Shown: positions 28,568-48,717, numbered from the stretch's first letter. The stretch is 64,000 nt of DNA from Candidatus Cloacimonadales bacterium (GCA_963663475.2 CAXXJV010000001.1:864001-928000); one strand, 5' to 3'. Notes: a model not told the origin generated them from the sequence alone. Translations and numbers: made by a program.

Positions 28568-28719
28568 AATTAGTCCTTTATTAATTGAACTGATTTCATT
28601 GCCTATCTTTAGTTTTTACTATAAATTATGGGTATGAGAATAGCATTAAGTTGATTAAGGATAAATCATTAGTTAGATAATTCTAAGCTGAACAATTCAA
28701 TCTTATTAGTAATCAATTG

Positions 28720-29340
28720 CTTCACCTTGTTGTTGGCCATCAACGTAATTTACTAATTATCTGTAGTCCTATCTTCATTGTACAATATTTCTTCACCTTG
28801 TTGTTGGCCATCAACGTAATAGGTTTTAAGCATTATATTTCCATAAAGAGAATATGTTATTGTCTCACCTTGTCTTCTGCCATCAACGTAATTGGCTTTA
28901 GTCCGTATATTCCCATTTTTATAATACGATATTTCTTCACCTTGTTTTTTGCCATCAACGTAATTGGCTTTAGTCCGTATATTCCCATTTTTATAATACG
29001 ATATTTCTTCACCTTGTTGTTGGTCATCTACGAAATTGGCTTTAACTTTTATACTTCCATCTTCATGATAAAAAATTACTTCACCTTGTTGTTGGTCATC
29101 TACGAAATTGGCTTTAACTTTTATACTTCCATCTTCATTATAGAAGGATGCTTCACCTTGTTGTTGGCCATCTACGAAATGGGCTTTACTTTCTATAGTC
29201 CCATCTATACGAAACCATATTACTTCACCTTGTAGTTTACCATCTACGTAATTGGCTTTACCCTCTATATCTCCTCCTCCATTATACCATATATTTTCAC
29301 CTTGTTTTTTACCATCTACGTAATTGGCTTTGGTCCATTT
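28720..29340 (-). repeat. 72-bp coding tandem repeat array
   Basis: TCACCTTG recurs every 72 bp; some adjacent units are nearly identical. Confidence 0.9.
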
Positions 29341-29985: not shown

Positions 29986-30155
29986 TTAAACCCAAATAAT
30001 GCAGTAGACCTTTGTGAACAGCACTATATTCTTCTGCAAAAGTAACTTCCATAATTTCTCCGAATATATAAAATATATGCGTCAAAATTCTGTAAGCTAT
30101 TTTGCTAGAATAATCTGCACTCTTCACTAAAGCTCTACTACACTATCTGGGTTAA
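29986..30155 (+). mobile_element. MITE family A, short form
   Basis: TTAAACCCAAATAATGCAGTAGACCTTTG...CTACACTATCTGGGTTAA. Confidence 0.88.
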
Positions 30156-30168
30156 AAATATTTGTATA

Positions 30169-30549
30169 TTATTTATCTCGGTAAGCCAGTTTTCCTGATG
30201 AGCTTCTTTCAAGCCTATGTATTTGATGATTTTGCTTGATAGAAATAGAAATTAATTTATAAAAGGAGTTACTATAAGTAATATTAATTGTAGCTCCAAC
30301 TTGCAGTTGTTTACCTATATCGAAATTATGTATAGTTTTATAGGCAGTTAAAGTTTCATCAATTTCTTCAAGGCTAAATCCTTGATTAAGCATGATTGAT
30401 TGAAAAAACATTCCAGATTTTATTACTATACTTGTATCTATGATAGTTTGAGCTTTTTCTTGGCTTATTACTTCTTGCTTTTCTTTACACCCCAAAAAGA
30501 ACAAGAATATAGATAGGAATAGAACAAATAGCTTCATATTTTTTTTCAT
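30169..30549 (-). CDS. Lipoprotein resembling the N-terminal (LysM/OapA-like) part of M23 DD-endopeptidases; possibly truncated
   Basis: Lipobox FLGC; IKSGMFFQSIM..QGFS.EEI...KQLQVGATINI pattern; no HxxxD/HxH catalytic domain. Confidence 0.5.
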   Translation of the reverse strand: MKKNMKLFVLFLSIFLFFLGCKEKQEVISQEKAQTIIDTSIVIKSGMFFQSIMLNQGFSLEEIDETLTAYKTIHNFDIGKQLQVGATINITYSNSFYKLISISIKQNHQIHRLERSSSGKLAYRDK

Positions 30550-31376
30550 TTTATTAACACCACAGGTTTATGTTTTTCTCCATCACAAGTATATCCTAAT
30601 TTTAGTAGATAATAGATAGTATTTGCTGGCAAATCTCTGAATTTAGCATTCAATATAGGACTTACCTGTTCAGAAAGAATTTCATTCATTGGTGATAAAG
30701 TAGGGTAAGTAGTCATTTCTATTTCATTAAATTTACTAACAAGTATTTCAGGATAAGAAACTTGAATATTTATGTTTTCAAAAACAATATCCATAAAAGT
30801 AGATATATAGACTAAGTCTTCATAATTTATGTTTGATTTTCTATAAAATGTCCCGATATTTATTGTATCAAGTTGGTAGTAATTAATCAAGTTAGTAATC
30901 ATAGTCTTGAATGTAACTAGTTTATCAATGATAGTATTTTTTTTGTTAGCATCTTCTTTTAATCGACTTAAGTCATTTTCAAGAGATAAAAAACTATTTT
31001 GACTCGATAAGCATAAGTTTTGAAGTTGATTTAAATCTTGTGATTGATCGAAAGATAAAAGCTTAGGTTTAACAAATTTTAAAAGAGACTTCACTGTAAA
31101 TTGAATACTAAACTCATTATTTTTTTTACGAAGTTTATCATTTTCTTCATTTATTTTCCTAAGAGATAGATTGTTTTCTTTGATAATTTTGTTAAGTTTC
31201 TTGCACTTTCTAATTTCAAAAATGTGGAATATAAGGATATTCAAAATTACTATTATTACAAGTGAGATTTCAATGATAAGTCCATAATTGAAATTGACAG
31301 TCATGAATTGTGAATATATTAGTAATAATAATACAAGAAGTAAGAGTGAGTTGATCGTCATCTCAAGTGTTTTCAT
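30546..31376 (-). CDS. 2-TM coiled-coil protein with GrpE-like C-terminus
   Basis: TMs, coiled coil, then YPEILVSKFN...NTIYYLLKLGYTCDGEKHKPVVLIK. Confidence 0.6.
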   Translation of the reverse strand: MKTLEMTINSLLLLVLLLLIYSQFMTVNFNYGLIIEISLVIIVILNILIFHIFEIRKCKKLNKIIKENNLSLRKINEENDKLRKKNNEFSIQFTVKSLLKFVKPKLLSFDQSQDLNQLQNLCLSSQNSFLSLENDLSRLKEDANKKNTIIDKLVTFKTMITNLINYYQLDTINIGTFYRKSNINYEDLVYISTFMDIVFENINIQVSYPEILVSKFNEIEMTTYPTLSPMNEILSEQVSPILNAKFRDLPANTIYYLLKLGYTCDGEKHKPVVLIK

Positions 31377-31384
31377 TTGTTCTC

Positions 31385-34069
31385 CTAAAAGTATGGCCAG
31401 AGTTTTTTACAGGTGTGTTCGTTCCAGATTTTCCCCGATAAAGGGCTAATAGAATAATCAGTATTTGCGACAGAGAAGGTATAATATAAATTATTATATT
31501 GCAATGAATTATTTATAATCTCTTGTCCCCGAATAGGATCGTTATTTATTGTTAAATCACCATCAATTGCTTTAAGACACAAATCGTAATTAGTATCATT
31601 ATTCAATTTCAGGTTATCTAAAGAAATATTTAAGATGTCATTTTTACATAAATCATTAGGGGTACATATTTTTATTGGATCGACAAAACCATCAGCTCTT
31701 GAAAAAATCAAAGAGAAGAGAGGTTTGTTTGGAGTAAGATAGTCCATAGCTCTATTAAAATATTCATAAGCTCCTTGGGCAGTGACTATTTTAGACTCAT
31801 CAGAGTAAATATCAAAATTTAGAGATTTTTTTAGACATTTTTTTAGACATTTTTTTAGAATTGTTTTTGGAGACCAAAATTTACCAAGTACCTCTTCTTT
31901 AATATTTTTAATCATTTGCTTTCTAAGCTCTGGTAACTTTATGCTACGTCCAGAAAGAATGATTCGGTCAATTTTATATGATTGAATACCTTCTAGGAAG
32001 GAGTGAATCAGTTTTTTATTGAAATTAGTTTTAAAATCAACAAAAGTAGGACTAGTAATTAACTCATTTCTTAAATTTTTCAGCTGTTCTTGATTATAGT
32101 TATCTTCACCTAATCGCAATCTTCCTAACTGTTGATAAAGATTATCTTCTAGAATATCATCATAACGATTTTCCTTAAGTAGTTTTATGAAATATTTAAA
32201 TATGAATTTTTCATAGCTATTCAATTCATGGTGACTTATATTTTTTTTCCTTAGATAATTATCTGCTAGTAAGAAATCTATGTAATCACCAGCTCCTAAG
32301 ACAGACGTACTTTTAACTATTGAATTTCTAGCTTCATTATCCTGAGGAGAATGGTTAGATTGGAAAAAGGTAAGGTCTATTGTTCCAGCCCCAATATCAA
32401 TAGCTAAAATATTCTCCACTCTTCTTCGTAAATTAAACTCAATTCTCTTGAAATAATTTTCATAGCCCCTACCGTCTCTCAATTTGATGAAGTCATTTCT
32501 TTTCTTTTTATCATAGTTCGCTATAACAGCCTCTGCTTCTGTTATTATATTTACATCAAGACAATTTTGAGACTGATAAAATGCATCCTTTAAAGTCTTC
32601 TTATTTGCTAAAGTAAAAGTTTTGGGAACAGTTATGATATATTTTTTCAAAATCGTATCATCTAACCCTATTCTTCTAATCAGTGCATTTGTATAAATTT
32701 CAATAATCCTTTCAATCTCAATTCCTTGGTATTGGTTATGACCAAGGATTAACTTAATTGCTGGGACTAGTATTTTTTTATTATCTTGATTTAAGGCATT
32801 AAGGTCAGACCATCTTTCAATAAAAGAGAACATTCTAATCTCAATTTTTTTAATAAAAATATTTATGATATTTTCAAGAGTTGAGTAACTTTCTTCAAAG
32901 ATATTCATTAAATGATTTACATCTTGATTATTGTTATTCTGGATTTGCCTGCATATGTCTGACCACAATTCATTATTGCCTAACAGAGTTTGAAATTCAC
33001 TGATAAAGGGAGATATTTTTTGCTGGGTTTCTTCATTAATCCAAGAATTTGGTCCAAAAATACTAGCATGTTGTATTTTTAGATTAGCTATTGTGGGGTG
33101 GGCAATACTAGCAATAAAGTCAATTTTCTCTTTTAATTGACCCAATAGATATTGTCTAATCTCAGAAATAGGTATACTGGTATCGAGAACACCTATTGCA
33201 CTAAGAATATGAGGATCTTTTTCTATAACCCCAGCATTGCTATCTGGATTATCATTGAATACCTTTGTCTTAATAAGTCCATTTTGATATTTATAATTAA
33301 CCACTATTCCACTCGTTCCCATATCTATAGCAATATTAACAAAATTATCAACTCGAATAATAATAATTTCATAAGTATGTTCAATTTCTCCATTATTTAG
33401 TATGTCTATGCTGATTCTGTTTTCACCAATATTCAAGTTTTGAAGATTGATGTTGGGCTTATTATTGAATTCTTGATCGTCTAATCTTAGGTTTAATTTA
33501 TAATTATTATTTACATCATTATCTCTCATATTTGATATACTTATATGGATTCCTTTGTGGTGACAATAAACAATATATCTTTTTCTTGAACTATAAAAAT
33601 TATGCTGGCCAATACGTAATTGGAAGCTATCTGTGTCTGGTAAGTTTCTAATGTTAGGGGAGTATTCTATTTCTCTTAAGGTTTTATTATTAAAACTCAA
33701 ATATATTTTTACGTCAATTTTCGGAATCAACCCATCACCAATACCTTTCCAATTTGGATCTTGATGATTTAGCTTTATTTGTAAGCAATTATTATCACTT
33801 TTTAAAATTTCAGCAGTTAATTGTGTTACAAGTGTTTCTTGAAAAATATCATTGTGGAAGATATAAGCTTCTATTTTAATGATGTCTTGCAGGATATAGT
33901 CACTAATGACATATTTATGTAACCACCATAGATTGGATATAACAAGGCTACCAAGATAATTGTTATCAGCTAAATCAGATTCATACTTAACACTAATATC
34001 TTTAATTTGTAGTACTTTTTTAACAATTTCATTTTTTTTATCATCAGGGATAATACTTGAAATAAACAT
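31385..34069 (-). CDS. Divergent Hsp70/actin-fold (ASKHA) ATPase with N-terminal cadherin-like beta-sandwich
   Basis: IAIDMGTSG, ITVP, ITEAEAV, LAIDIGAGTIDL, GAGDYID, ILSGRSIKLP, TAQGA. Confidence 0.85.
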   Translation of the reverse strand: MFISSIIPDDKKNEIVKKVLQIKDISVKYESDLADNNYLGSLVISNLWWLHKYVISDYILQDIIKIEAYIFHNDIFQETLVTQLTAEILKSDNNCLQIKLNHQDPNWKGIGDGLIPKIDVKIYLSFNNKTLREIEYSPNIRNLPDTDSFQLRIGQHNFYSSRKRYIVYCHHKGIHISISNMRDNDVNNNYKLNLRLDDQEFNNKPNINLQNLNIGENRISIDILNNGEIEHTYEIIIIRVDNFVNIAIDMGTSGIVVNYKYQNGLIKTKVFNDNPDSNAGVIEKDPHILSAIGVLDTSIPISEIRQYLLGQLKEKIDFIASIAHPTIANLKIQHASIFGPNSWINEETQQKISPFISEFQTLLGNNELWSDICRQIQNNNNQDVNHLMNIFEESYSTLENIINIFIKKIEIRMFSFIERWSDLNALNQDNKKILVPAIKLILGHNQYQGIEIERIIEIYTNALIRRIGLDDTILKKYIITVPKTFTLANKKTLKDAFYQSQNCLDVNIITEAEAVIANYDKKKRNDFIKLRDGRGYENYFKRIEFNLRRRVENILAIDIGAGTIDLTFFQSNHSPQDNEARNSIVKSTSVLGAGDYIDFLLADNYLRKKNISHHELNSYEKFIFKYFIKLLKENRYDDILEDNLYQQLGRLRLGEDNYNQEQLKNLRNELITSPTFVDFKTNFNKKLIHSFLEGIQSYKIDRIILSGRSIKLPELRKQMIKNIKEEVLGKFWSPKTILKKCLKKCLKKSLNFDIYSDESKIVTAQGAYEYFNRAMDYLTPNKPLFSLIFSRADGFVDPIKICTPNDLCKNDILNISLDNLKLNNDTNYDLCLKAIDGDLTINNDPIRGQEIINNSLQYNNLYYTFSVANTDYSISPLSGKIWNEHTCKKLWPYF

Positions 34070-34086
34070 TTCATTCCTCCTTAGAA

Positions 34087-37002
34087 TTATAAGTTGTTAT
34101 ATTCTTCTTCGATTCTAGTCAAAGAGTAGCTAGAGATAATTAAAATAGTAAATGATGGGATAACAAATAATATATTCGAGAATTTGGCATGGCTTAGTAA
34201 ACAAGCTGGAATACCGACTATCGGAGATGTCCCTGCTACATTACCTATAGTAATAAGGTAATGGGAAATAATTAGTCCAGTTATAGCTAAAATGATATTA
34301 TTATAAGTTTTTTTTATTAGTGCTATTTCAGGATATATACTGTTAATATTACCAGATTTTTTTATGCTATTGAAGAATAACCAGAAAATTATCGATGCTA
34401 ACCATACAATTCCCCACCTTTTATATATAAAAAAGAAAAAGGATAAGGAAAAGTCATCTTTAATCTGTGGGACATTATCCAGTAGTGAAATTGAAGATAT
34501 GTTGCTGTTCAAAAAATGAGAAGATAGGTAAAATTGTTCATTTAGTATTGTCCATGGGTATCGGCACATGAAAAATCTTTGATGAAGGTAGGTTCCATTT
34601 GCAAAGTTGAAATAAGTTATGTAGCAGATGAAAAATAGCATTAATAGAGCAAAAGAAGAAAGATGTCTACTCTTTTCTTGGAGGAAAACTATTATAAATG
34701 ATATACTGAAAATAACCATATAGGATTGGTCATCCAAGCAAAAGGCAAAAGATATCGCTAGAATAAAACAGAGAATCCAACCCCAATACCTTGATAATGA
34801 ACTATTTTTACTATAAATATAAGTTGCCATAATAATAAATATTAGTTTTATTAATTCAAAGATAGGAAGATGTCTTCCAACCATAAGGATTCCTAACTCA
34901 TTTCCTCGAATTATCTGAAAAAAGAACAAAAGTAAAGAGTAGAAAAATATTTGAGGGAAAATATTGTATTTATTCTTATTAGCTTCAGTATTAAGGGTAC
35001 TATTTAAAAGGCCAAAAAAACCTTTTTTAAATGGGTCATCAGCTATATAATAAAATTTTTTAAATAAATAGCCGATAATAGAGACTGTAGCCAATGAGAA
35101 GATAATTCCGACTTTTAGTGACCTAATAAGTTCATTTTGCAAATAGTGAAGTCTGGGGGAATAAAAACTCATGATTGTCAAGTTTAACAAACCTTGGTAA
35201 CATAGTAATATAAAGATCAAGATAAAAGTTATTATTTGATTATCTATCCTTAAATATTGCATCAAGAAAATAACAAGAAGAGCAATAATGGAAAATATGC
35301 CTGTGATTTTGAGAATCTTATGGCGTATATTAACAGGTTTTGAGTAATTAATTTTAGTTTTCGACGAATGCTGACTATTTGTAAGTTCATTAGAAAATGT
35401 AAAATCATCTTGGTAGTAGTACTTTCTATTCTCATTTTTTGTATTAGTTATCACTAATAAACTATCTTCTTTTGAAATATCAAAATCAGAGTAGCCGATT
35501 CTAAATGATGGTTGATCATTAAATATTCTTCTTTCTTGAAGTTCATATAAAGAGTTAAAGTTATTTTCTCCCATAGATTTAACTTGAATATTGTGTTTTG
35601 CTCTAGGGCTGTAGTTAATTATTGAAAGGGTAATATCAGTTCTGAAAGAACTTAAACACAATAATATAATAGCTATTAGGAAAGTGACTCTAAAAAAGAG
35701 CATTTTTTTCTGCCAAAGTCTTACCAAAAGTCTTACAATGATTACTTTGATTGCATTCACAATCTTCTTCCATGCTCTATTATTATTAGGTTCTTCTATA
35801 TCATTAACTAAGGGAATATTTTCAATCTTACTCTTATCAGAAGAAAAAATTAAAATCAAATGAATGGTAGCTATATGAATAAAAACAAAAAGAATTATAA
35901 TGTCTAAGGAACTAACCAATGAAATATTACTAATAAGTGGTGTTTGGGTGATTATTAATGACATCCAGTTTAATATTAAATACGTGATAAAAAGGTAAAT
36001 AAGTGATAACACAAAAGTATTAATCAGGGATAATACTTTTGATAAGAGCTTATTTTTTACTGATGACGATCCTATCCTAAATGGCAATGTAAGTATATAA
36101 AATAATCGTGAAGCAAAGAATATAAAAACTCTTAAATTTAATCCTAAGTCGATGTTGATAGTTTCTCCAGTGAGGGTATAATTATGTAAAATATATAAAT
36201 ACATGGTCATGAATAAAAATAATACAATTAGAATTAATATAAGAAATGTTAAAGAGTTATAACTAAAAAACATCGATAGAATAATTAGAGTAATACAGAA
36301 GCAAAAAAACACGATAAACTTAGGAATTTTATTCCATAGTTCTCGATTAAGTTCAACCACCTTACTAGAATTTCTTATAATATATGAGGAAAAATCATTT
36401 AAGTATTTTTTATAAGGTGAGGAAAAGATTCCAATCGCTAATATTAGTAGTATGAGGGAAGGTATAAATCTATTTAAGTATTCAGGTAGATTAAATAAAT
36501 TTGATGTAACCCTAAAAATAACTTTCTGTGGAGAATTAAATTCTTTTGGAGGGAAAAAAGTAAAAGGTAAAGCGCTCCAAAGAAAATGTATTTCTTTATT
36601 ATTGCCATAAGAAATAATCTTAAAAAACTTATAGTCATTAAAGTCAATTTGATTATTATTTAGATTGATTTTATCTCCATCTTTCAACTTGTAATTTGAA
36701 AGGTAACTATTTCTTAGAACAACTCTATTAGTTGCTGATAAATTCTTGAATGAAAAATTTTCATAATCAGAAGAAGTAATAGCTAAATGATGATCACTAA
36801 TTTTGGGTAGATTTAAAACTATATCATTATCATCTGAAGAGCCAAGAGTTAATTCAAAGTCATCACTATTAGCAGGTAAAGGATAGATGTAACTAGTTTC
36901 AGATACTTTTATTATTTTTTCATTTTCCAATTTATGATAGGGAACGATAAAACTTATCATAAACAAAATAATAAAAATTGTGATAGTCAATATATTTCTC
37001 AT
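34087..37002 (-). CDS. FHA-domain + SEDS (FtsW/RodA) family peptidoglycan glycosyltransferase-like protein
   Basis: N-terminal LTLGSSDDNDIVL..ISDHH..KNLSATN..LKDGDKI; many TMs; FELIK, VPQIKDDF, GTSPIVGIPACLLSH. Confidence 0.8.
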   Translation of the reverse strand: MRNILTITIFIILFMISFIVPYHKLENEKIIKVSETSYIYPLPANSDDFELTLGSSDDNDIVLNLPKISDHHLAITSSDYENFSFKNLSATNRVVLRNSYLSNYKLKDGDKINLNNNQIDFNDYKFFKIISYGNNKEIHFLWSALPFTFFPPKEFNSPQKVIFRVTSNLFNLPEYLNRFIPSLILLILAIGIFSSPYKKYLNDFSSYIIRNSSKVVELNRELWNKIPKFIVFFCFCITLIILSMFFSYNSLTFLILILIVLFLFMTMYLYILHNYTLTGETINIDLGLNLRVFIFFASRLFYILTLPFRIGSSSVKNKLLSKVLSLINTFVLSLIYLFITYLILNWMSLIITQTPLISNISLVSSLDIIILFVFIHIATIHLILIFSSDKSKIENIPLVNDIEEPNNNRAWKKIVNAIKVIIVRLLVRLWQKKMLFFRVTFLIAIILLCLSSFRTDITLSIINYSPRAKHNIQVKSMGENNFNSLYELQERRIFNDQPSFRIGYSDFDISKEDSLLVITNTKNENRKYYYQDDFTFSNELTNSQHSSKTKINYSKPVNIRHKILKITGIFSIIALLVIFLMQYLRIDNQIITFILIFILLCYQGLLNLTIMSFYSPRLHYLQNELIRSLKVGIIFSLATVSIIGYLFKKFYYIADDPFKKGFFGLLNSTLNTEANKNKYNIFPQIFFYSLLLFFFQIIRGNELGILMVGRHLPIFELIKLIFIIMATYIYSKNSSLSRYWGWILCFILAISFAFCLDDQSYMVIFSISFIIVFLQEKSRHLSSFALLMLFFICYITYFNFANGTYLHQRFFMCRYPWTILNEQFYLSSHFLNSNISSISLLDNVPQIKDDFSLSFFFFIYKRWGIVWLASIIFWLFFNSIKKSGNINSIYPEIALIKKTYNNIILAITGLIISHYLITIGNVAGTSPIVGIPACLLSHAKFSNILFVIPSFTILIISSYSLTRIEEEYNNL

Positions 37003-38009
37003 TGTTTTTCAACCTTGAGTGTGTATAAGCCAAGATCATAAGTCTCGCCATATTCTATTTCTTTACCATTAATTATCCATTTATTAGTTTCTAGCCTAAT
37101 TTTTTTGGGAAGCTCTGAAGATTCAGATGGGAGATACACTTTCTTGTAGGTGGCATGATTAGTGAAAAAATACTTAGGTATTTCTATTTTTAAATCTATC
37201 TCGCAAGCAAAATCAGATTCAATATCTTCTCTCAGGTTAATACAGCTTGCTCGACTGGCATTACATGAATAACAAATTTCTCCACTGTCATCTTTATAAA
37301 TTCCGATAACTGCTATGTCTTTCCCATTTCCATCTACAAATTCAAAGTTTTTACTGTTAAGATATAGTTCCAGTTTAGTAGTATTCCCTAATCTCTCAAT
37401 CACTTTCTTAGCAATTTCAGATAGTGATGCAAATTTAATTTTTTTTATTAATGTGAATTTACTTAGAAGGTCATTAATATTTATTACTCTTTCCTTTTCA
37501 ACGAGTTCAATATTTTTTTTCTCATCTTCAAAGCTAATTACTTGAGGATTAATATCTCTAATTTGCACAAAATCATTACTAATAACAGATTTACTGTTTG
37601 AATTCATAATAGTAGCAAATGGATCACTACTTATTAAGCAAAATTCATTATCTTTAATATTAAGAGAAATCGCTTTTTTATATGTGAGATTAGATGTACC
37701 ATTTAAATAATACTGATTAGATAAGAATTTATCATGAATCATTAGATAAGCTTTATTGAAGTCAATATGGGAGTATATGGTTTTTAAGTCAATTTTTATC
37801 CCAAGATAAGCTTTTGGCTCTTCGACATCTCCTATAAAGTATCTAAAAACTGAAGGAAGTATCAATGTTAGCTTATTTTTTTCATTACTAATTACTGATT
37901 CCATTTCCTTATTATCTTCATTTTTTGCCTGTATTTTTTCCTTAATCAATTTAGTAATATAGTTATTTGAAATCTCATTTAAATCTAAATTAATTTGAAT
38001 TATTTTCAT
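36999..38009 (-). CDS. Hypothetical protein (possible degenerate FHA-like C-terminus)
   Basis: Coupled ORF; ends WIINGKEIEYGETYDLGLYTLKV. Confidence 0.65.
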   Translation of the reverse strand: MKIIQINLDLNEISNNYITKLIKEKIQAKNEDNKEMESVISNEKNKLTLILPSVFRYFIGDVEEPKAYLGIKIDLKTIYSHIDFNKAYLMIHDKFLSNQYYLNGTSNLTYKKAISLNIKDNEFCLISSDPFATIMNSNSKSVISNDFVQIRDINPQVISFEDEKKNIELVEKERVININDLLSKFTLIKKIKFASLSEIAKKVIERLGNTTKLELYLNSKNFEFVDGNGKDIAVIGIYKDDSGEICYSCNASRASCINLREDIESDFACEIDLKIEIPKYFFTNHATYKKVYLPSESSELPKKIRLETNKWIINGKEIEYGETYDLGLYTLKVEKQ

Positions 38010-38021
38010 GTTTATCCTTCC

Positions 38022-41000: not shown

Positions 41001-41615
41001 TTCTGCTAATTTTATAAGTATTGAATTTTCTTCAGTTAAAAGCGTAGGAAGTCTAACAGGGGTTAGATTGTTATTATTTCTCAGATAAAGATATTCGTCT
41101 GAATTAGGATATGTTGGATAAAGTACTAGTTGATTTTCTTGAAAGTCTAAACTTGCAATTAAATCTGGAATAAAAGTGTGGTCAGAAGATTTGTCAATAA
41201 CAATACTAGATTTTTTTTGATCAAAACCTATGTGAATAGTTCTACTACTAAGATCACTTCTATAAGCGTCGAAAATTGTCCTGTAGTAGAAATCTTTAGG
41301 CCTTGTATATAGTTCAAAATCAAGATCTTCAAAAGATATGATATCTCCATTTTTTAATTCATTAGTATTTGAAGTAATCAATTTATCGTTTATATAAGTA
41401 TTGTTAATATGAGATTTCGAAATCCAATTGTTATTTTCAAAATTAATTTCCAAAAGATCTGATCTACTTAAAAGTTTATCAGTCTCAACAATTATATAAT
41501 TATAATCGCTAGATACTTCTCCATTTTTCATTATACTGATGAGTTTTAATGAAAGGGATAGCATTGTAAGAGCTAAGAAAAGGACAATGGCTAAATTACG
41601 ATATAATATTTTCAT
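38022..41615 (-). CDS. Giant class B penicillin-binding protein with FHA-like N-terminal segment
   Basis: IYDRDNNILA, GLE, TTINSDWQ, GEILVSASYP, PGSTIK (SxxK), SYN (SxN), AKTGTS (KTG), SWFVG. Confidence 0.88.
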   Translation of the reverse strand: MKILYRNLAIVLFLALTMLSLSLKLISIMKNGEVSSDYNYIIVETDKLLSRSDLLEINFENNNWISKSHINNTYINDKLITSNTNELKNGDIISFEDLDFELYTRPKDFYYRTIFDAYRSDLSSRTIHIGFDQKKSSIVIDKSSDHTFIPDLIASLDFQENQLVLYPTYPNSDEYLYLRNNNNLTPVRLPTLLTEENSILIKLAEKEINLKIVQKLEKHKMYYKHPLNNHSQSDYLRDDLKVSISIQDKNKFSLDQLARSALLIFKNKSGLEIHKELSRDKKNIIVSQNKLLKPIDYRKNAIIPNSVSLAIFKKDYEKVMFTFKTKYLDNMLSRPLNNSLNYKRDIITDSLLCDEKLKKINKHHELALKPLLKELITETQSLIFQPGISATFAIYNHVNKTQRFVTTDNSWFVSHNNVRERAISYNRDTYFKRNFGSFIAFPLQINPPVNHQREFIFTPTDFNLEDGETVSYVKICATGDYLLRGFDKVISGDFSDRNKKIIINSAPRENIQISLITHNNSVKLFPNPYLKGYLEINNTRFPTNRNWRSSLNSYIAPSSFTDNMRNIGEKHYTSNRLQAVRVDSLDDNKIILPYENISPKSEQAFYYFRYDMPVSSPIFYDFNNDVLVYEIQDSTWRLLSNGDMVSANGVIAVQIKPYTSPLGPTNKLLLLSKGKLKDISVSRNVFDKIDIILPNIYDRDNNILAFSTPDSKRNYSSLRGLSNLLGFYDNKSKQTVGLESYFKELSNQYKNEKIEIETTINSDWQEYAHRLLESYVNDFSFKDGDLVNDKTEPWGAFLLTKRNGEILVSASYPSIDSTYFDNPRNERNLLVDLSYGSNVSGFNNRYLNHNFKSPATPGSTIKLINAMTLLHADSLLEEDDIRLQYVDILLHDDYTNNPNLNNGNDNWNNIKGKSFIFSPDKNITLNHKNFETENTVFTPTDNNLQKALEHSYNTYFSYAMLHLNLDFIDSYDDITYIRPKGYCLKEDEYLNYPFNYWRDKLFFNQRLTYTGNLLDSLGNSLLFHDTIAEDLIVNPSFLPNNELFSWDFVQAAVGDVTPSLTNFQQLMVLSLINEGYIKLPYLFKSIKIGEKIYNGQAISINNNIITSYMPRLKSYIGEKYSKDPPNLGRLYAKTGTSTLSNERELNNSWFVGIWEYEGETYYFSLVLNSVHQTSEIAVNLFKEFRDYVINNQNLSTY

Positions 41616-41629
41616 AATAATCCTAGTTG

Positions 41630-43426
41630 CTATTGTTTAACAAATATAGTTAGATTAGTATAGATGTGCTCATCGTCATATATGCACATAGTTTCTACCT
41701 CATAGATACTACCACTATCTAATGAATCATATACTGTTTTGAATAAATCTGGTTCAAATTTATTTAGAATAGAGTACTTTTTTGATTCAAAACTAATGTT
41801 ATCACTGAGTAAAGTGCCATCAGGTTTTGTAATTAAGGTATCATTAAACATCAGTGGAACTGTCTTTGGATAAAGGAAATTAAAGTTGTAAATTTGCTTG
41901 GCTACAGAAATTAAATCTTTAAATAAAATATTGATTATTGGATGTAATGAATTTATTTTGCTATCTTTATATAAACTAATTAACCTAATTCTATTTAGAT
42001 TATTTAGGTAATCCTTTAAAGCGCTTTTATTTTTAACATTTATATTACCTAGGAGGGATAAATAATTCATGTAATCATTAGTAATATCAAGAATTTCCGC
42101 TTCTTCTTTTATTTGATTGAAAATTGTTTCATATCTTTGTAAGCAACTTTCAACAAAACTTTCGCTATGTTCTAGTTTTATTTCTTGGATTTTAGCTTCG
42201 TAGCCTTCAATAGCCTTTTCTTTATCTGCTTTTATTTGTCTTTCCGATTCTTGGCTAATAGAAAGAAGTTTCTCTAACTGAGATTTCTCTTTTTTAATCT
42301 CTTTATACTTTGTTTCTAAAGATGATAAGAGTTTTAAATCATAGTTAAGCCTTTCATTTTTAATTTTTTCGTTCTTAAACTCTATTTTTTGGTTTTCCAA
42401 CTCACTTTCTTTAACTTGAATATCACTATTTTTCTCATCTAGCTTATTCTGTAGTTGGACTATTTCCTGATTTAAGCTACTTATAGCATTTCTTCTATAT
42501 CTTTCTTCTGAAAATAAATTTCCAATTAATTCACTAAGAGTTTCAATTGAATCTCTATGTTTATTGAACTTTTCTTGGGCATCTTTTGTTAGATTATTAT
42601 GGACAAAATTAATTTTTTCATCATCAGCATGTGAAAATCCAGATTTGTTATTAAAATGAGTAATTTTAATATTTGTATTATTTTTTGATTCAATCAACTT
42701 CTTTATTTGAGATAATAAATCATCATAACAAAAAACATTTTCCTGAAGAGAACGAAGTAATTCCTTATTATTTTGTTCTAAATCTTTAACATTTTTTTTG
42801 TATTCAGCAATTGCTTTATCTTCTATTTTAGAGGGCTGAAGGGGTTTATCAAGTTCAGTGATTGGTCTTCTTATCGATTTTGGGAAAGTGGTTAATGGCT
42901 CGTTTTCAATAACTTGCTCAGACTTAGGTGATATATTTTGATTTTTCAATTGACTTTTTTGAATGCTAACGCCCTCTTTATAAGCAATCTTCTGTGTATT
43001 AACCTTACTCTTAATATCACGATTTTTACGCTTAATGACTATTAGGCAACGAATAGTACTTATAAGAAAGATTAGACAAAGAATAGATACTATTAGTAAA
43101 ATTGAATCATTATTTAATATTTTTTCCTTTTTATTAGAAATATTATCAACGGATTCTTTATTTATCTTAGTACTTAGTACATCTCTTTCAATAACTTTAG
43201 TTGAACTTTTGATGTTATTTTTAATATGTTCAATAACCTGGTCGAGTTCAGAAGAAACAGAATGTAGAAATATTATGTGAATAGTATCTATTTTAGTTGA
43301 TTTTGTAGTATTGTCAGTATTAGAGTAGTCTGTAGAATCTTTTATACTTTCATCTTTCTCCTCTATTGCTATCATTATTGAAGATAATGCAAGAGTGATA
43401 ATTAATATCAAGATTATTTTTTTCAT
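41630..43426 (-). CDS. Membrane-anchored coiled-coil protein with GrpE-like C-terminus
   Basis: Signal/TM, second TM, long coiled coil, YPKTVPLMFND...SGSIYEVETMCIYDDEHIYTNLTIFV. Confidence 0.55.
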   Translation of the reverse strand: MKKIILILIITLALSSIMIAIEEKDESIKDSTDYSNTDNTTKSTKIDTIHIIFLHSVSSELDQVIEHIKNNIKSSTKVIERDVLSTKINKESVDNISNKKEKILNNDSILLIVSILCLIFLISTIRCLIVIKRKNRDIKSKVNTQKIAYKEGVSIQKSQLKNQNISPKSEQVIENEPLTTFPKSIRRPITELDKPLQPSKIEDKAIAEYKKNVKDLEQNNKELLRSLQENVFCYDDLLSQIKKLIESKNNTNIKITHFNNKSGFSHADDEKINFVHNNLTKDAQEKFNKHRDSIETLSELIGNLFSEERYRRNAISSLNQEIVQLQNKLDEKNSDIQVKESELENQKIEFKNEKIKNERLNYDLKLLSSLETKYKEIKKEKSQLEKLLSISQESERQIKADKEKAIEGYEAKIQEIKLEHSESFVESCLQRYETIFNQIKEEAEILDITNDYMNYLSLLGNINVKNKSALKDYLNNLNRIRLISLYKDSKINSLHPIINILFKDLISVAKQIYNFNFLYPKTVPLMFNDTLITKPDGTLLSDNISFESKKYSILNKFEPDLFKTVYDSLDSGSIYEVETMCIYDDEHIYTNLTIFVKQ

Positions 43427-43469
43427 AATATACCTTTGATCTTATTTTGTAACTAGTGAATATCTGCTA

Positions 43470-43889
43470 TTAATCCAAAGCATTTTTTATATTGCTGATT
43501 GTTGTTTGAATTTGATTGTTATGAAAGGAATAACTTTCCAGAGATTTTTGAATAAAAGTTCTTAAGTCATTGTATTTTTTTTCAAAACTATTATTTCTTA
43601 AAACTTTGTTTTCTTCCTTTAACTTTGTTTTTAGTACTTCTAACTCTTCATTTTTTTTTTGTAATGAACGTTTTTCTTTTGTTAACTCTTCATTACTTCG
43701 TAAAATGTTTTCTTTTTCTCTTTGTAGCTGTTGGATTTTTGATTCAAAATCACTAAGATTGTTTTTGTTTAGTTCATTATTTAAATTCTCTTGGTTAAGT
43801 ATTTCATTATGTCGTTTTAAGGTTGATACTTGTTTTTCTAATTCTTCAATTTGTTTTTTTAGTAAATTTTCATTTGTAGTTTCTTCCAT
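43470..43889 (-). CDS. Small all-coiled-coil protein (DivIVA/ZapB-like composition)
   Basis: Heptad K/E/N/Q/L-rich sequence; AGGAG RBS. Confidence 0.65.
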   Translation of the reverse strand: MEETTNENLLKKQIEELEKQVSTLKRHNEILNQENLNNELNKNNLSDFESKIQQLQREKENILRSNEELTKEKRSLQKKNEELEVLKTKLKEENKVLRNNSFEKKYNDLRTFIQKSLESYSFHNNQIQTTISNIKNALD

Positions 43890-43917
43890 AATATCTCCTA
43901 TAGTAATTAGTCATTTA

Positions 43918-46900
43918 TTATTGATTAGGTAGGTTTGTAAAAGGCCATAAGCTAATATTATAGCCAATGTTTTTAGAAAAGTCAATGTCAGATAACTCAA
44001 CAGGCCGAGGTTCATTATCATCAATCTTAATTGTTAAGTCGTTATCATTTCTTATAAGTTCTACTGAATAATTTCCATTTTTTCTAGGTACTTGATATTT
44101 ACCAATATGAATATAAAATGGAGACTCTTTTACTAAAGCTGCATTTTTATTACTTTTATATTCTTTGGCTATTATAGAAGAACATTTGAAAAGCTCTAAA
44201 TAAGCTTCCTCATTACCTATAATCAAACTACTAGGGCAATTATGAATATTGAACTGATTATTTCCATTCTGGCTTCTTTCGAAGAAATACATGTGTTTAT
44301 TTATGTTACAATAAAATCCATAAAGGAACTTGTTTTCTTGTAGCTCTCCAAAATCTATATTAGATATCTTGTTGTTGCCAATACCATAAAAGATATCATC
44401 ATATATCTTTAATCCCTCAACAACTTGGCCTTTGGGTCTTTCGGGAATAATGAAAGAAGGAACAAAATTAAATGATGATAAAGTCGCCTTAATAATTTCT
44501 TGTATTTTAGGTGAATAGCCTGCTAACTTACTTCCACGTCCAACAATAGCTACATCTATTTTTTGTTTTTCTTGAACATGTCGAGTATCAAAAATTAAAC
44601 AAATAGCTTCTTTTATAGAATCAATTAAATACTTCCTAGTATTGTCATCTTTCCAAAAGGTTGATAGATTGACTAGTAAACTATTTATTTCATCTTCATT
44701 TTTATTCATGTAAGAAGTATAGTCTTTCTTGAAAGTTTTTTTATCTGATGTGGATAAAATATATTGATCATTGTGGGTAAAAAATTTCTTTTGTTTGTTA
44801 ATGAAATTTTTTGCTTTTAACAGTTCTCTTTTCTCCATCAACCTATAATTTGGAAATATTGCTTGAGTTATGAGACTATCAATAGCATCACCTGCAATGT
44901 TATAGCTAAATCTATCGAGAACTTCAACATCCCATCTATTTGTAATGCTCCATTTAATCAAGCTAAGATCAGTTGTTCCTGCTCCGATATCAATAACCAA
45001 TAAAAACCTATTTGTTAACTGAGCATCTTGATTTCTAAAATGATTTAAAATGTTTAAAGCAACAGCATCTGATTCGGAGATAAAACTAACTTCACACTGC
45101 TCTTGATAATATCCAACAAGTTGCTTCTCTATTTTTTCTTTAACAATCTTAAGAGTGTTATTGGGTAATGATATAAAAAATTGCATTGAGGTATTGTTCA
45201 TTATTTCTGGTTTTAAATCCATGTAATGATCAAGAAACTGAATAGTAGTCTGTAGATATAGCTTGTCCATTGGGATATTGAATATCGAAAGGTTTTCTTT
45301 ATCAATTAAAGGTTTGAATAATTCTCCATCATAGTATCCTGGTTCAGGAGTATCTTCGGAATTTATAGTTAAATTCATAAGTTCCCAGAGGTTAGGTAGT
45401 TTTTCATACTGGATAAAATATTTTTCAGAAGGTATTATATTTTCAGGTTCAGCTATTGAATTTAGCCTTGGGATTTTGAACAGACATTGCGATGGAGTTT
45501 GATACTTATCCAAATACTTTATACTATCATTCTTGCTTTTCATAAAATCAAAGAATGTTAAAGTCGAGATAAATTCATCATCAAAATTTGGTATATCTGC
45601 TGATGTTATCAGATTTTGCTCGTTTCTAGCATATATTTGGTTAATTTTAACTAACTTACTTTGATTACCGATACCAGCTATTTCAGCATAGTTATTATTT
45701 TCATCATAAGATCTGATATTTATAGCATTAGCAGAAGTACCTTTATCAAAATAGACTGCATAGTTTCTAGGAGGATTTAGTTTAATTAGTGTCTCTTTTG
45801 GGAAGTTCGCAACTGTTATGTTGTCTGGTCCTATTACTTTCACAACAAAAAATAATTTGACCCTACATTTTACGCAAGAGCTAATTTTAATTGAATATTC
45901 TTTACTTGCACCGATAGGAATGTTTACATTGTCTAGGATATATTCATAATTAAACGTTTTTTGGTTAACGCTAAAAGGAAGCTCGTTTATGCTATTGGGC
46001 TTAGCGTTATCCTTATTCTCTGGTATCGAACGCAGTTTAATAATTAACTTAAAATTATTATATAGCTCTGATATATTATTAATAGTGATAGTCCCAATGC
46101 TCTGAGAAACAATATTATGCGATCTTTGGTTGTAAATACCTTCTTTTTTTAGTTTATCAATATAGAAGAAATTCGGGGTAAAATTTATTTCAGGGTAAAC
46201 TTCATTTTTATTTCTCCAAATAGAGAAAGGGCAACTTGAGTTGTTAGAATTCAAGGTAAAGTTTAAAAAATCAGATGGATTAGAGTAAGAATAATTATTC
46301 AAGTCTAAAGTTACTTTAATTGTAAAAGACAATCTGCCTCTATATAGTTTCTTGTTATTTTCTTTGCTCAAGAGAGTTATTGACTTTTTATCCCCATTAT
46401 TGGACTTTCTTTGATAAAATTTCATTGAGTTATTTTTTTTAAAATTAGAACTCAAAATATCTAAGCAATCTAAGCCAATGATTACATTTTTTCCATCAGC
46501 ATGCGTTATATTAATAGGGATAGTAATTTCAATATCTAAGTATTTTAAAGCCTTTGTTTCCATCAAAAAGTTAAATTCAAAAGAGATGGGGTCTTTTTTT
46601 GAGAAAATTGCTTTATCTGGTCTCAATAAGGATATTGATTTTATTTCCCAGTCTTTATTAACCTTAGTAGTAGGAAGAAATAGGAAATAACCAAAAATAA
46701 GCAAGCAAATAACTATAACAGTGGCAGAGATAATTAAAACAATAATATATTTTTGTGTATCACTAATCTCGTCCTGAATATCTGGAGACTTGACAAATTC
46801 ATATATCTTTTTAAGCATCTTTATGTATGCAAAGGGTTCAAAATACTTATTATAAGAGATAGGAATTACAGATGAGTTTTTTATTAAGAATGGATAATCC

Positions 46901-47994
46901 TGTGGTCTAAGATTCATTCCTTTAATATATTTATTATTAAGTTTGTGAGATACACCATAATTTATATTTACAACCGATCCATTTATATATTCACTTACAT
47001 CAATAAGTGTCTCATGTTCAAAATTAACATTTCCGAAGTTTTGATTGTTGATAGATAAGTTAAATTTTACATCATGGTTTTGGTTTTCAGTATTTTCATG
47101 ATGGGGTTTAATGAATAAATATGTTTTTTCTAAAACATGGTACGTTTCAAAATTCAAAACTGGTATAGGAACAGAAAAATTAAAATCACTAGGTTTAATT
47201 TCAAGTTCTTTAACACAAATTCTTATATGTTGTTGATCAGGCCTCTTAAAATCGAGATCAATTGGGTAATAAGTAAATAATTGGTTGAAGCTTTTCAGAG
47301 AATCATAGAAATTAAAAAGGTCTTCTTCATTACTTTTATAACCTGAATTATCTAAAAAAGCAAAGGCATCTCTATTTTCTTCATCAGCATTTACCGCTCT
47401 AAAAGATTCCGAATTAACAATTTCATCTGATATCCTAATAATAACAATTCTGTTGAAAGATAAATAATCATATTTAGTAGTTAGCAGTGTTGCGAAATAC
47501 TCAAGTGAGAACAAACGGGTAGATAACCTATTGAAGAAAGATGAAATGCTTTTTTGAGTTATCAAATAATCTAAAACTTTAAGTGAATTATTAATATTTT
47601 TCTCATTAGCTTTTTCTGGTTCAAATTCAACTTTAAGATAATCCTCTAGTGAAGTATACATGTACATATGGTTTTTCTGAAATTGCTCTCCAAAACCAAA
47701 TTTTACAAGAGTAAAATAGTCTGTATCCTCTTTCATATTTAGTTTTTCAATAACTCTTTGAAAATTGTAGGTAGATTCTAAATCTTTATCAAAAAAAGAG
47801 CATATGTTTGACCATTTGTTTAGATTTGATGTACCATTATCAGTATACATTGTTTGGCTGCCATCAATTGCAAAAATATATAGGGTAGAACTTGAATTTT
47901 CATTTGAAAACAAGTTATATGGGATTATTGCTAATAAAAAAATAATTGTTAATAATTGTAAATAACGAAACAAATTTTCTCCTTTATTATTCAT
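43918..47994 (-). CDS. VWA-like extracytoplasmic domain + TM + divergent Hsp70/actin-fold ATPase
   Basis: FAIDGSQTM (MIDAS-like), RISD, TM, then YFDKGTS, ISLP, ISESDAVA, LVIDIGAGTTDLS, IAGDAID, IVGRGSKL, VVEGL. Confidence 0.85.
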   Translation of the reverse strand: MNNKGENLFRYLQLLTIIFLLAIIPYNLFSNENSSSTLYIFAIDGSQTMYTDNGTSNLNKWSNICSFFDKDLESTYNFQRVIEKLNMKEDTDYFTLVKFGFGEQFQKNHMYMYTSLEDYLKVEFEPEKANEKNINNSLKVLDYLITQKSISSFFNRLSTRLFSLEYFATLLTTKYDYLSFNRIVIIRISDEIVNSESFRAVNADEENRDAFAFLDNSGYKSNEEDLFNFYDSLKSFNQLFTYYPIDLDFKRPDQQHIRICVKELEIKPSDFNFSVPIPVLNFETYHVLEKTYLFIKPHHENTENQNHDVKFNLSINNQNFGNVNFEHETLIDVSEYINGSVVNINYGVSHKLNNKYIKGMNLRPQDYPFLIKNSSVIPISYNKYFEPFAYIKMLKKIYEFVKSPDIQDEISDTQKYIIVLIISATVIVICLLIFGYFLFLPTTKVNKDWEIKSISLLRPDKAIFSKKDPISFEFNFLMETKALKYLDIEITIPINITHADGKNVIIGLDCLDILSSNFKKNNSMKFYQRKSNNGDKKSITLLSKENNKKLYRGRLSFTIKVTLDLNNYSYSNPSDFLNFTLNSNNSSCPFSIWRNKNEVYPEINFTPNFFYIDKLKKEGIYNQRSHNIVSQSIGTITINNISELYNNFKLIIKLRSIPENKDNAKPNSINELPFSVNQKTFNYEYILDNVNIPIGASKEYSIKISSCVKCRVKLFFVVKVIGPDNITVANFPKETLIKLNPPRNYAVYFDKGTSANAINIRSYDENNNYAEIAGIGNQSKLVKINQIYARNEQNLITSADIPNFDDEFISTLTFFDFMKSKNDSIKYLDKYQTPSQCLFKIPRLNSIAEPENIIPSEKYFIQYEKLPNLWELMNLTINSEDTPEPGYYDGELFKPLIDKENLSIFNIPMDKLYLQTTIQFLDHYMDLKPEIMNNTSMQFFISLPNNTLKIVKEKIEKQLVGYYQEQCEVSFISESDAVALNILNHFRNQDAQLTNRFLLVIDIGAGTTDLSLIKWSITNRWDVEVLDRFSYNIAGDAIDSLITQAIFPNYRLMEKRELLKAKNFINKQKKFFTHNDQYILSTSDKKTFKKDYTSYMNKNEDEINSLLVNLSTFWKDDNTRKYLIDSIKEAICLIFDTRHVQEKQKIDVAIVGRGSKLAGYSPKIQEIIKATLSSFNFVPSFIIPERPKGQVVEGLKIYDDIFYGIGNNKISNIDFGELQENKFLYGFYCNINKHMYFFERSQNGNNQFNIHNCPSSLIIGNEEAYLELFKCSSIIAKEYKSNKNAALVKESPFYIHIGKYQVPRKNGNYSVELIRNDNDLTIKIDDNEPRPVELSDIDFSKNIGYNISLWPFTNLPNQ

Positions 47995-48717
47995 TATAAA
48001 GATATAATTATTGTTCAAGTCAAAAAAATCTATTAGCTAAAGAACATTCTATAGTTACTTTAGAATGTTACTATTTTTTGACTAAGCTTCGCCCTATGAC
48101 TTACAGAGCTTCTGAAGCACTTTTTATATGTAGTATGCGTTTCTTCCTTGTTTTGGAATTTTTATTGATCTTGATGCACTTAGTATGATTCAAAAAGAAA
48201 GTAAATTTCTTTCCTTGTCAATAAAAAAATGTGTTTTAGAATTTTTTATTCTTTTTTAATAAAATAATCTGCAACTGTAACTTGTGATGGGACTTACTTA
48301 CAGCCGATTTTAACCTAGGTTTAAAAGTACTTGTTGATAATTTTTTATCAGATTTTCTGTTTTTCACAAAAGAAATGAGTAAAAGCTTTTTAATTCTACG
48401 GATATTTTCTATAATATTTAGAAACGCGAAACTAAACTTATAATTGATTCATCTAGGGCAAATTTAATTTGAATTTAAAAACATCTTTTTCATCTTCGTA
48501 GCGATGGTTTAGAAAATCTTGATGTAACTTTCGTGTTGAATTATTTCTCCCTCACATCCCCCGCCAATTATTCCCATTGACAGATTAGAAAAATTATATT
48601 ATTTGATTTATTCTCTAATAAAAGAGTAGTTTTTGTGATTAAGACAACACTTTTCATAACCTTCACCTTTAAGCTACTTAAGTAATTGGAGATAATATTA
48701 AATCAAGGTCTGAACAT

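Follow-up and report, generated by a model that had tools for sequence, protein, structure and literature searches.

The window analysed here is a stretch of 64,000 nucleotides from the genome of a Candidatus Cloacimonadales bacterium. Its subject is an operon of nine co-oriented minus-strand open reading frames (ORFs), which fills positions 30169–48018 and joins a diverged SEDS-type protein and a giant class B-type penicillin-binding protein (bPBP) to two large Hsp70/actin-fold ATPases. The genes are named after the length of their products in amino acids and run, by ascending coordinate, in the order g126, g276, g894, g971, g336, g1197, g598, g139 and g1366, with spacings of −4, 8, 17, −4, 12, 14, 43 and 28 bp, respectively; the 4-bp overlaps are those of g126 with g276 and of the stop codon of g336 with the start of g971. 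The ORFs and their spacings confirm the layout proposed in the sequence-only reading, an earlier inspection of this DNA that had described nine co-oriented minus-strand genes with gaps of 43 bp or less, or overlaps. Its end point, 47994, corresponds to the first ATG of g1366, and a TTG start extends this gene to 48018. The sole other ORF of at least 100 amino acids within the operon span is a 120-residue frame antisense to the g139 gene, and at about 28% GC, where a stop codon is expected every 12 codons or so, an open frame of 1366 codons would arise by chance with a probability of about 1e-51. The 699-bp gap between the first operon gene and a divergent GNAT gene (48019–48717) presumably contains the promoter. 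Scans of the window for tRNAs and Rfam families are negative, none of the nine proteins has a match in PHROGs, and no convincing repeats flank the operon, the longest shared word being 11 bp.

The RodA-PBP2 and FtsW-FtsI pairs are the SEDS-bPBP peptidoglycan synthases, steered by the actin-fold proteins MreB or FtsA. The genome carries a canonical mreB-mreC-mreD-pbp2-rodA cluster at 2.41 Mb and canonical ftsW/ftsI genes at 2.48 Mb, and its dnaK and grpE genes lie at 1.41 Mb. Since both housekeeping sets sit elsewhere, the pair encoded by the operon is a third, accessory set, which upholds the earlier proposal of an accessory SEDS-bPBP pair joined with Hsp70-fold ATPases in a single compact operon. 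One gene (g336) separates the SEDS gene from the PBP gene, and their products form a putative pair.

The SEDS-type protein and the giant penicillin-binding protein

The g1197 protein (38022–41615) is composed of a single N-terminal transmembrane (TM) segment (residues 8–26), an FHA-like stretch (56–95), a family-specific extension of about 650 residues and a C-terminal transpeptidase domain. The latter matches the Pfam transpeptidase family PF00905 with an E-value of 4e-15 (56.2 bits, for a cut-off of 22.1) and carries the three active-site motifs intact, STIK at 859, SYN at 951 and KTG at 1133, in full agreement with its earlier description as a bPBP with SxxK, SxN and KTG motifs. The segment before and around the active-site serine (743–877) matches the PBP2 model TIGR03423 (1.1e-6), and residues 502–891 are weakly collinear with PBP2 19–355, at a P of 0.02 only. 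With one hydrophobic segment (8–26) and no GT51 match, the protein shows these two characteristics of class B. Its FHA-like stretch is borderline: it scores 0.0019 and 19.0 bits with hmmscan, under the cut-off of 20.7, and 23 bits in the genome search.

The g971 protein (34087–37002) begins with an N-terminal helix (residues 4–22) followed by an FHA domain (52–114) and by approximately seven to eight TM segments (179–453), according to hydropathy and Pfam. Its C-terminal half consists of a loop of about 100 residues (455–560) and a diverged ten-TM SEDS-type glycosyltransferase domain (approximately 560–971), which brings the TM segments predicted after the FHA domain to about 17. The FHA label given to this protein earlier is justified by a Pfam match well above the cut-off (PF00498, 4.3e-9, 37.1 bits for a cut-off of 20.7), and in a genome-wide Pfam search the only two FHA matches are those of g971 and g1197. 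A G54-S55 pair replaces the GR motif, of which we take the arginine to be the phosphate-binding residue, and S69, H72 and N92 are retained, the Ser and His of the SxxH motif and the Asn being presumably the residues that bind phosphothreonine.

The C-terminal domain of g971 has no match to the SEDS family (PF01098) at E ≤ 10, with a model that finds the two canonical SEDS genes of the genome, and no match to an order-level SEDS hidden Markov model (HMM), even under --max. Profile comparisons nonetheless point towards SEDS: residues 581–971 are collinear with a profile of 31 RodA/FtsW sequences of the order (hhalign, global P 0.0012, 347 columns), and in a control of 51 sequences, made up of 49 polytopic ORFs of the same genome and two g971 fragments, the C-terminal fragment ranks fourth against the SEDS profile, after the two canonical SEDS proteins and a Wzy-like protein. 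In the ESM Atlas, 25 of the 30 clusters nearest to g971 are FTSW_RODA_SPOVE (PF01098), with a top score of 0.95. A phmmer search over 1.84 billion representatives yields 37 proteins at E ≤ 0.001, one of them full-length (P0003, 79% identity) and 36 matching the FHA region only. A search of PDB sequences returns the FHA domain only, and an AlphaFold2 model built from a two-row alignment is unusable (mean predicted local distance difference test score, pLDDT, of 33.3). Taken on its own, g971 thus offers weak to moderate evidence for a SEDS protein.

A counterpart of the operon strengthens this assignment. When the 232 genomes of the phylum were scanned with the Pfam FHA model, an FHA domain within an ORF of at least 900 amino acids was found, among the matches listed, only in the window genome and in a genome of a different family of the same order, G018. 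The latter harbours a co-oriented run of at least 30 kb (G018:C22:6000–41000, loci L177 and L179), which contains about ten membrane or coiled-coil proteins without family match. In gene order, this cluster encodes a 1374-residue PBP with a transpeptidase domain (1.8e-22) and LysM (1.6e-9), a peptidoglycan-binding domain; a 1257-residue HerA/FtsK-like ATPase; a 175-residue protein; a 924-residue FHA-SEDS protein with 17 predicted TM segments; a 440-residue protein with a weak kinase match; three proteins without assignment; a 1303-residue protein in which a kinase domain (Pkinase, 1.4e-9, with HRD and DFW strings) is fused to an Hsp70-like domain; and two proteins of 252 and 666 residues, each with two TM segments. 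The PBP is related to g1197 over the transpeptidase domain (blastp, 1e-35) and over residues 255–483 of the N-terminal extension (4e-8). The Hsp70-like domain of the 1303-residue protein matches Pfam HSP70 at 9e-4 and an HMM of the DnaK nucleotide-binding domain at 2e-7, and does not match the MreB HMM at ≤0.05. No PP2C phosphatase is found among the ten proteins of the cluster that were scanned. The trio of giant bPBP, FHA-SEDS protein and giant Hsp70-like ATPase is therefore common to both loci, and the co-occurrence of homologues in another genome, on which the earlier proposal had been made to depend, is observed for this core in a diverged relative.

The 924-residue protein matches the Pfam SEDS family above the cut-off (8.1e-10, 38.6 bits for 26.4) as well as FHA (1.7e-7), and it aligns with residues 655–954 of g971 (hhalign, Prob 85, E 6e-6, 281 columns). 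A joint profile of g971 555–971, P0003 and the 924-residue protein matches the 31 RodA/FtsW sequences with a Prob of 96.2 and an E of 1.6e-9 over 345 columns. Because the G018 homologue passes the Pfam SEDS cut-off and the joint profile matches SEDS, we accept g971 as a diverged SEDS-family protein; the earlier SEDS label thus stands through a transitive homologue and a joint profile, and not through a direct Pfam match. D850 of g971 aligns with the invariant Asp of SEDS proteins, which we take to be the catalytic residue in their large outer loop, and P845, R809, G920, P927, G930 and S937 are kept as well. The motif VP.(I/L)KDD..S around D850 is invariant in g971, P0003 and the G018 protein, and the Gly-Ser pair of the FHA domain is likewise common to all three.

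The Wzy-like protein that ranks before g971 in the control is a polytopic protein of 474 residues without Pfam match, which adjoins a Wzx-type flippase and glycosyltransferases (L140 7250–8674; G000:C1:711249–712673); it matches the SEDS profile with a P of 4.5e-6 and is probably a Wzy-type polymerase with a distantly related fold. A Wzy-type relation of g971 itself was rejected, the comparison with this protein giving a P of 0.25. Ten long FHA proteins from a library search were also rejected as FHA-SEDS candidates, as they are FHA-ABC transporters, propeller, TPR or PrsW proteins. Elsewhere in the order, three to five FHA-domain genes in a row are seen in many genomes (L171–L176, for instance G013:C1:119000–138900), among them genes for proteins of 750–770 residues with two FHA domains and six to seven TM segments; these runs may be FHA-ABC transporter systems and have no match to the SEDS and PBP2 HMMs.

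The Hsp70/actin-fold ATPases and the small partner proteins

The two ATPases of the operon differ in their attachment to the membrane. The g1366 protein (43918–48018) has an N-terminal hydrophobic helix (residues 20–38), a probably extracytoplasmic region of about 390 residues, a TM segment (425–443), a cytoplasmic β-rich region and an ATPase domain of the ASKHA superfamily (approximately 750–1210), while g894 (31385–34069) is soluble and consists of 245 N-terminal residues without family match, an ASKHA domain with large inserts (approximately 245–780) and a β-rich C-terminal tail. The strings IDMGTSG (248), DIGAGTID (558) and LSGRSIKLP (705) in g894, and FDKGTS (757), DIGAGTTD (1010) and IVGRGS (1158) in g1366, supply the phosphate 1, phosphate 2 and adenosine motifs, in that order; a further motif string, ITEAEA (509) in g894 and ISESDA (980) in g1366, lies before phosphate 2. 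The three nucleotide motifs mark the ASKHA superfamily and not Hsp70 alone.

Model searches lead to the same superfamily. In NCBIfam, g1366 matches BeeR (3.9e-7) and MamK (6e-5) and g894 matches MamK (8.7e-4); in Pfam, g1366 stays below the cut-offs for MreB (8.9e-4) and HSP70 (0.0045, 13.3–15.7 bits for a cut-off of 20.6), and g894 has no match to HSP70 (PF00012). The two proteins resemble each other around the phosphate-2 motif (blastp, 3e-4), and both match the PADLOC model PDC-M61B, g894 at 1.6e-8 and g1366 at 5.5e-6, in partial alignments that span about 80–90 of its 588 positions; no PDC-M61A match is present among the operon proteins, which leaves the PDC-M61 system incomplete. The closest match of g894, in a related genome, is a 517-residue protein that is itself a clear Pfam HSP70 (9.6e-23); hhalign gives the two a Prob of 92 (E 7e-7, 210 columns), against a Prob of 46 with MreB and of 14 with the DnaK nucleotide-binding domain, and the ESM Atlas also leads from g894 to HSP70-bearing clusters. 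The g1366 protein is related to the 1303-residue kinase-Hsp70-like protein of G018 (blastp, 8e-4). From these motifs and models, g894 and g1366 can be firmly assigned as paralogous ASKHA (Hsp70/actin-fold) ATPase domains with intact nucleotide motifs, which bears out, at the ASKHA level, the Hsp70-fold ATPases of the earlier description.

Other domains that had been read into these proteins did not materialize: g1366 has no VWA match, either as a whole or over residues 35–300, at E ≤ 1 to 10, its DGSQT string at 52–56 being seen by eye only, and the N-terminus of g894 has no cadherin match. An Hsp70 substrate-binding domain is found in neither ATPase, and in g1366 the HSP70 model is covered only at positions 183–348 of 599. 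Searches of PDB sequences with either protein return nothing useful, and no likeness to the G018 kinase is seen in g336, in the N-terminal part of g894 or in the central part of g1366 (P 0.09–0.6).

The 517-residue relative of g894 is encoded at locus L070 (G020:C88:8665–28600), where it sits in the segment 9494–17317 together with a 932-residue WD40 protein, HEC-01A/B-type genes and an IetA-like AAA+ gene, a defence-island context. Like g894, it matches the defence-candidate model PDC-M61B.

The remaining five proteins are small or coiled-coil partners. The g276 protein (30546–31376) is predicted to form a TM hairpin (residues 11–29 and 32–50), followed by a cytoplasmic coiled coil and a conserved C-terminal domain without family match (205–276). 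In g598 (41630–43426), an N-terminal helix (4–22) and a short acidic outside stub precede a TM segment (112–130), a long cytoplasmic coiled coil, of which residues 201–449 match an SMC coiled coil in NCBIfam (3.9e-4), and a C-terminal domain without family match (approximately 455–598); the PDB sequence search with its 256 C-terminal residues returns nothing relevant. The small cytoplasmic coiled-coil protein g139 (43470–43889) has weak matches only (Rad50 0.0038, RIMB1_N 0.0022), and g336 (36999–38009) is a cytoplasmic orphan protein without a match in Pfam (E ≤ 10), NCBIfam, PADLOC, PHROGs or PDB sequences. The last one, g126 (30169–30549), is a small lipoprotein with an FLGC lipobox at 18–21 that ends in Cys21; its sole match is to the signal peptide only of LolB1 (0.0036), and its supposed likeness to an M23 N-terminus has no counterpart in Pfam or NCBIfam. 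Hydropathy predictions, the basis of all TM layouts given here, detect no TM segment in g894, g336 or g139; together with the lipobox, they reproduce the membrane segments claimed before.

Distribution, possible function and related systems

Orthologues were searched with four of the nine genes (g894, g971, g1197 and g276) and found at identities of 71–85%: beside P0003 for g971, these are P0002 for g894 (71%), P0040 for g1197 (85%) and P0045 for g276 (80%, near-invariant over residues 205–276). The orthologues of g894, g971 and g1197 are on contigs of 22,703 and 22,045 bases, and the longest contig for that of g276 has 22,045 bases, a sharing of contigs that is consistent with a single conserved cluster in a relative. 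The SEDS motifs (96–98%) and the ATPase phosphate-2 region (94%) are where the orthologues agree most. Short contigs from the metagenome run of a second study are 92–99% alike across the operon. Beyond these sequences the operon, which evolves fast, is rare: the g1197 query matches two of the 232 genomes of the phylum at E ≤ 1e-8, in two different families, and the g894 query matches none of 40 relatives, a set that includes G018, where the ATPase has diverged beyond the reach of this query. Pattern matches of g971 to genome contigs (101), of a wider metagenome contig scan for relatives (594) and of g894 to viral contigs (two) gave no confirmed case.

Base composition and synteny set the operon apart from its surroundings. 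Its genes have a G+C content of 23–29%, for 32–36% in the neighbouring lepA, nadB, tmk, ctp and GNAT genes, and four genomes of the same genus (L077–L080) keep nadB and the GNAT gene and then carry, at the operon site, different and unrelated genes in each case. The patchy spread, the non-syntenic site and the low G+C content together indicate horizontal acquisition, and the module is probably mobile. The region from position 48718 leftwards is a variable chromosomal spot, synteny with the four congeners ending at the 48019–48717 gap.

In the reading that best accounts for these data, the module encoded by the operon would be an accessory peptidoglycan synthase, probably mobile, and Hsp70-like ATPases tethered to the membrane would control it by way of FHA contacts. 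That the nine genes specify an accessory third peptidoglycan polymerase/cross-linker pair together with its own cytoplasmic control apparatus is a proposal to which we give about even credence. The ATPases would act at the inner membrane face as nucleotide-driven switches or scaffolds, g1366 being anchored by its own TM segment and g894 held in place by the TM or coiled-coil proteins g276, g598 and g139, whose genes each follow an ATPase gene, and their nucleotide-dependent switching or assembly would gate or place the SEDS-bPBP pair, with the FHA domain of the SEDS protein as the likely docking point. The output would be local peptidoglycan synthesis or repair at a special place or time, and not bulk growth, and the module as a whole would be horizontally mobile. 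In G018, the fusion of a kinase to the ATPase suggests that FHA docking is phospho-dependent there, like that of the actinobacterial pknAB-rodA-pbpA-fhaAB cluster (PMC3989709). The window operon encodes no Ser/Thr kinase or PP2C phosphatase detectable in Pfam or NCBIfam, the one clear kinase of the genome lying outside it, at 1.85 Mb; since it lacks a kinase and its FHA domain has a Ser in place of the phosphate-binding Arg, docking may be phosphate-independent in this version.

Several observations weigh against this synthase reading. On the side of the PBP, no Pfam match to the PBP_dimer (pedestal) domain is found in g1197, the best PDB sequence matches of its KTG region (1129–1184) are class D β-lactamases, and its FHA-like stretch would be periplasmic, together with the transpeptidase, because the sole TM segment precedes it. 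On the side of the SEDS protein, g971 differs from the consensus at 35 of the 49 highly conserved columns (≥87%), being identical at 14, and the changed positions include the Arg of the GxxR motif, the EE pair and SYGG; with so many columns changed, it may be inactive or differ in substrate. Both a cytoplasmic and a periplasmic location are possible for its FHA domain. For the putative binding of g894 to g276, a complex prediction (g894 240–800 with g276 52–276) scored 0.00 and returned no verdict. MreC and MreD profiles, compared with g971 130–470, g598, g276, g139, g336, g126 and g1197 1–740, give a P of 0.0077 at best, at a signal peptide, so that no likeness to either is seen in the operon proteins. 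The small partners are not detectably shared between the window operon and the G018 cluster, and the conserved unit is for this reason the trio only. Finally, the patchiness, the low GC content, the non-syntenic site, the kinase and HerA/FtsK-like ATPase of G018 and the defence-island relatives count against a purely building role, and a mobile conflict or repair module, a live rival, would fit them about as well.

In such a conflict, defence or envelope-repair module, the ATPases would sense an attack on the envelope (by a phage, a predator, an epibiont or an antibiotic) as threshold switches, and the SEDS-bPBP pair would be the wall-patching effector; the chemistry overlaps with that of the synthase module, and the purpose and trigger differ. 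The presence in two of the 232 genomes, the atypical composition and location, and the exchange of accessory genes between the two versions, with a kinase and a HerA/FtsK-like ATPase in G018, all speak for it, as does the nearest relative of g894, which adjoins WD40, HEC-01A/B and IetA-like genes and shares the PDC-M61B match. A survey of conflict systems with Hsp70-like NTPases (Kaur et al. 2020, PMC7159879) describes diverged ATPases of the Hsp70 fold as switches in mobile, NTPase-centred multi-gene systems, where they occur with GrpE in some cases and as Hsp70-only proteins in others; the weak PDC-M61B matches of g894 and g1366 are a point of likeness to such systems. The described systems, however, employ GTPases, tubulin or further kinds of effector, FtsW is absent from PMC7159879, and the conflict-system papers examined make no mention of SEDS or PBP. 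Moreover, the Pfam, NCBIfam and PADLOC scans bring out none of the usual effectors, such as a nuclease, a pore or a toxin, the PADLOC matches are weak and concern one component only, and no phage family (PHROGs) is matched. We view this alternative as a serious one that is nevertheless rather doubtful. A bolder reading would see here a third mode of SEDS-bPBP control, in which a mobile cassette uses giant Hsp70-like ATPases, in place of MreB or FtsA, to switch on an FHA-tagged pair when a wall under attack needs patching or reinforcement, and so provides an on-demand "wall-repair immunity"; we put it forward as a speculation that is unlikely to hold in this form.

It appears improbable that g894 and g1366 go through a true Hsp70 chaperone cycle, with g276 and g598 as their GrpE-type exchange factors. 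Such a cycle would account for the presence, after each ATPase gene, of a gene for a TM and coiled-coil protein with a conserved C-terminal domain, for the Hsp70-like rather than MreB-like character of the G018 ATPase, and for the last 25 residues of g276, which by eye are in register with the end of GrpE. Yet this register has a P of only 0.07 in the comparison of g276 with a 29-sequence GrpE profile (hhalign), which concerns these 25 residues alone; g598 gives 0.36 and the joint g276 and g598 profile 0.71. A Pfam search at E ≤ 10 finds no GrpE (PF01025) in any operon protein, no relation between g276 and g598 can be detected, seven small proteins of G018 give P values of 0.044–0.6 against GrpE, and a PDB profile search with g276 returns no GrpE and nothing relevant. 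An AlphaFold2 model of g276 from two rows is unusable (mean pLDDT 44.1). The absence of a substrate-binding domain from both ATPases adds to this. The exchange factors of the sequence-only reading are thus not supported, while the remainder of its self-contained wall machine, the union of a SEDS-bPBP pair with Hsp70-like ATPases and its accessory status, is retained.

Less probable still is a sensor or signalling device built of dead enzyme folds, in which the transpeptidase fold would bind muropeptides or β-lactams as in BlaR1/MecR1, the SEDS-like protein would be a scaffold and the FHA domain and ATPases would relay the signal: the class D β-lactamase likeness of the KTG region, the 35 changed SEDS columns and the G018 kinase are in its favour, but the SxxK, SxN and KTG motifs are all intact, the Asp and its P..KDD..S motif are invariant in g971, P0003 and the G018 protein, and no DNA-binding or other output domain is found in Pfam or NCBIfam.

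When the synthase module is compared with known SEDS-bPBP systems, its composition resembles that of the divisome and elongasome cores, which are formed by FtsA-FtsW-FtsI with FtsQLB/FtsN and by MreB/RodZ-MreCD-RodA-PBP2, respectively. As in these, the proposed unit combines a SEDS protein and a class B PBP with ATPases of the actin/Hsp70 fold and with bitopic coiled-coil membrane proteins. In contrast to them, the operon gathers all parts in one place, its ATPases are giant (894 and 1366 residues) and probably closer to the Hsp70-like proteins than they are to MreB, an FHA domain is present on the SEDS protein and a weak FHA-like stretch on the PBP, the SEDS protein has some seven to eight extra TM segments, no MreC or MreD likeness is found, and the whole is accessory and rare. 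The SpoVE-SpoVD pair of endospore formers is a third, dedicated SEDS-bPBP pair that builds the spore cortex, a special wall, and it resembles the present one as an extra pair beside the growth and division pairs; it is, however, not known to have FHA domains or dedicated ATPases, and the window has no sporulation context. With BlaR1/MecR1 and the class D β-lactamases, g1197 shares a transpeptidase-fold domain with SxxK and KTG on the external side of the membrane, but it also has SxN, a PBP2-type TIGR03423 match and a nearby SEDS gene, and no zinc-protease domain. The actinobacterial cluster pknA/pknB-rodA-pbpA-fhaA/fhaB, with a phosphatase, likewise encodes FHA, SEDS and class B PBP proteins together, along with a Ser/Thr kinase as in the G018 version (PMC3989709). 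Its FHA protein is separate, whereas the FHA domain is fused to the SEDS protein here; the window has no kinase or PP2C, G018 has its kinase in one protein with an Hsp70-like ATPase, the FHA domain has a Ser in place of the phosphate-binding Arg, and the pair is accessory and not housekeeping.

A full-text literature search, with subscription journals and supplements outside its coverage, returned no description of this composition and no characterized locus that it matches, as had been supposed at the outset. As far as that search reaches, the composition is undescribed, and it extends the known SEDS-bPBP modules with ASKHA partners and FHA/kinase control.

SEDS-bPBP pairs are core wall polymerases and major drug targets, and to our knowledge only a few ways of steering them are recognized, namely MreB, FtsA/FtsZ and Ser/Thr kinases with FHA proteins. 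An FHA-fused, Hsp70-ATPase-linked, mobile accessory pair, with a kinase-Hsp70 fusion in one lineage, would widen this list, if it is confirmed, and the operon would offer a compact and genetically separable system in which to follow the gating of wall synthesis by a cytoplasmic ATPase. If true, the defence or repair reading would tie the enzymes of cell-wall synthesis to conflict systems. The present weight of the system is limited by its narrow distribution, although the cluster of G018 now provides a second, independent instance of its unusual architecture.

Sequences downstream of the operon

Upstream in coordinate, and downstream in the direction of transcription, the operon is followed by three more minus-strand genes (27054–29865), which encode a protein of 145 residues without assigned function, a radical SAM/SPASM protein (26% GC) and a MORN-repeat protein. 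Further on, at 23417–26653, lies the gene of a 1078-residue FtsH-like protein (AAA and Peptidase_M41), which has an N-terminal extension of about 600 residues without family match. Just downstream of the operon, at 29986–30145, an interspersed repeat of about 160 bp has 249 blastn matches in the genome, of which 212 are on contig 1 and 37 on contig 2, many of them 97–99% alike and eight within the window, and it shows a depth spike of about 70-fold in the aligned contigs.

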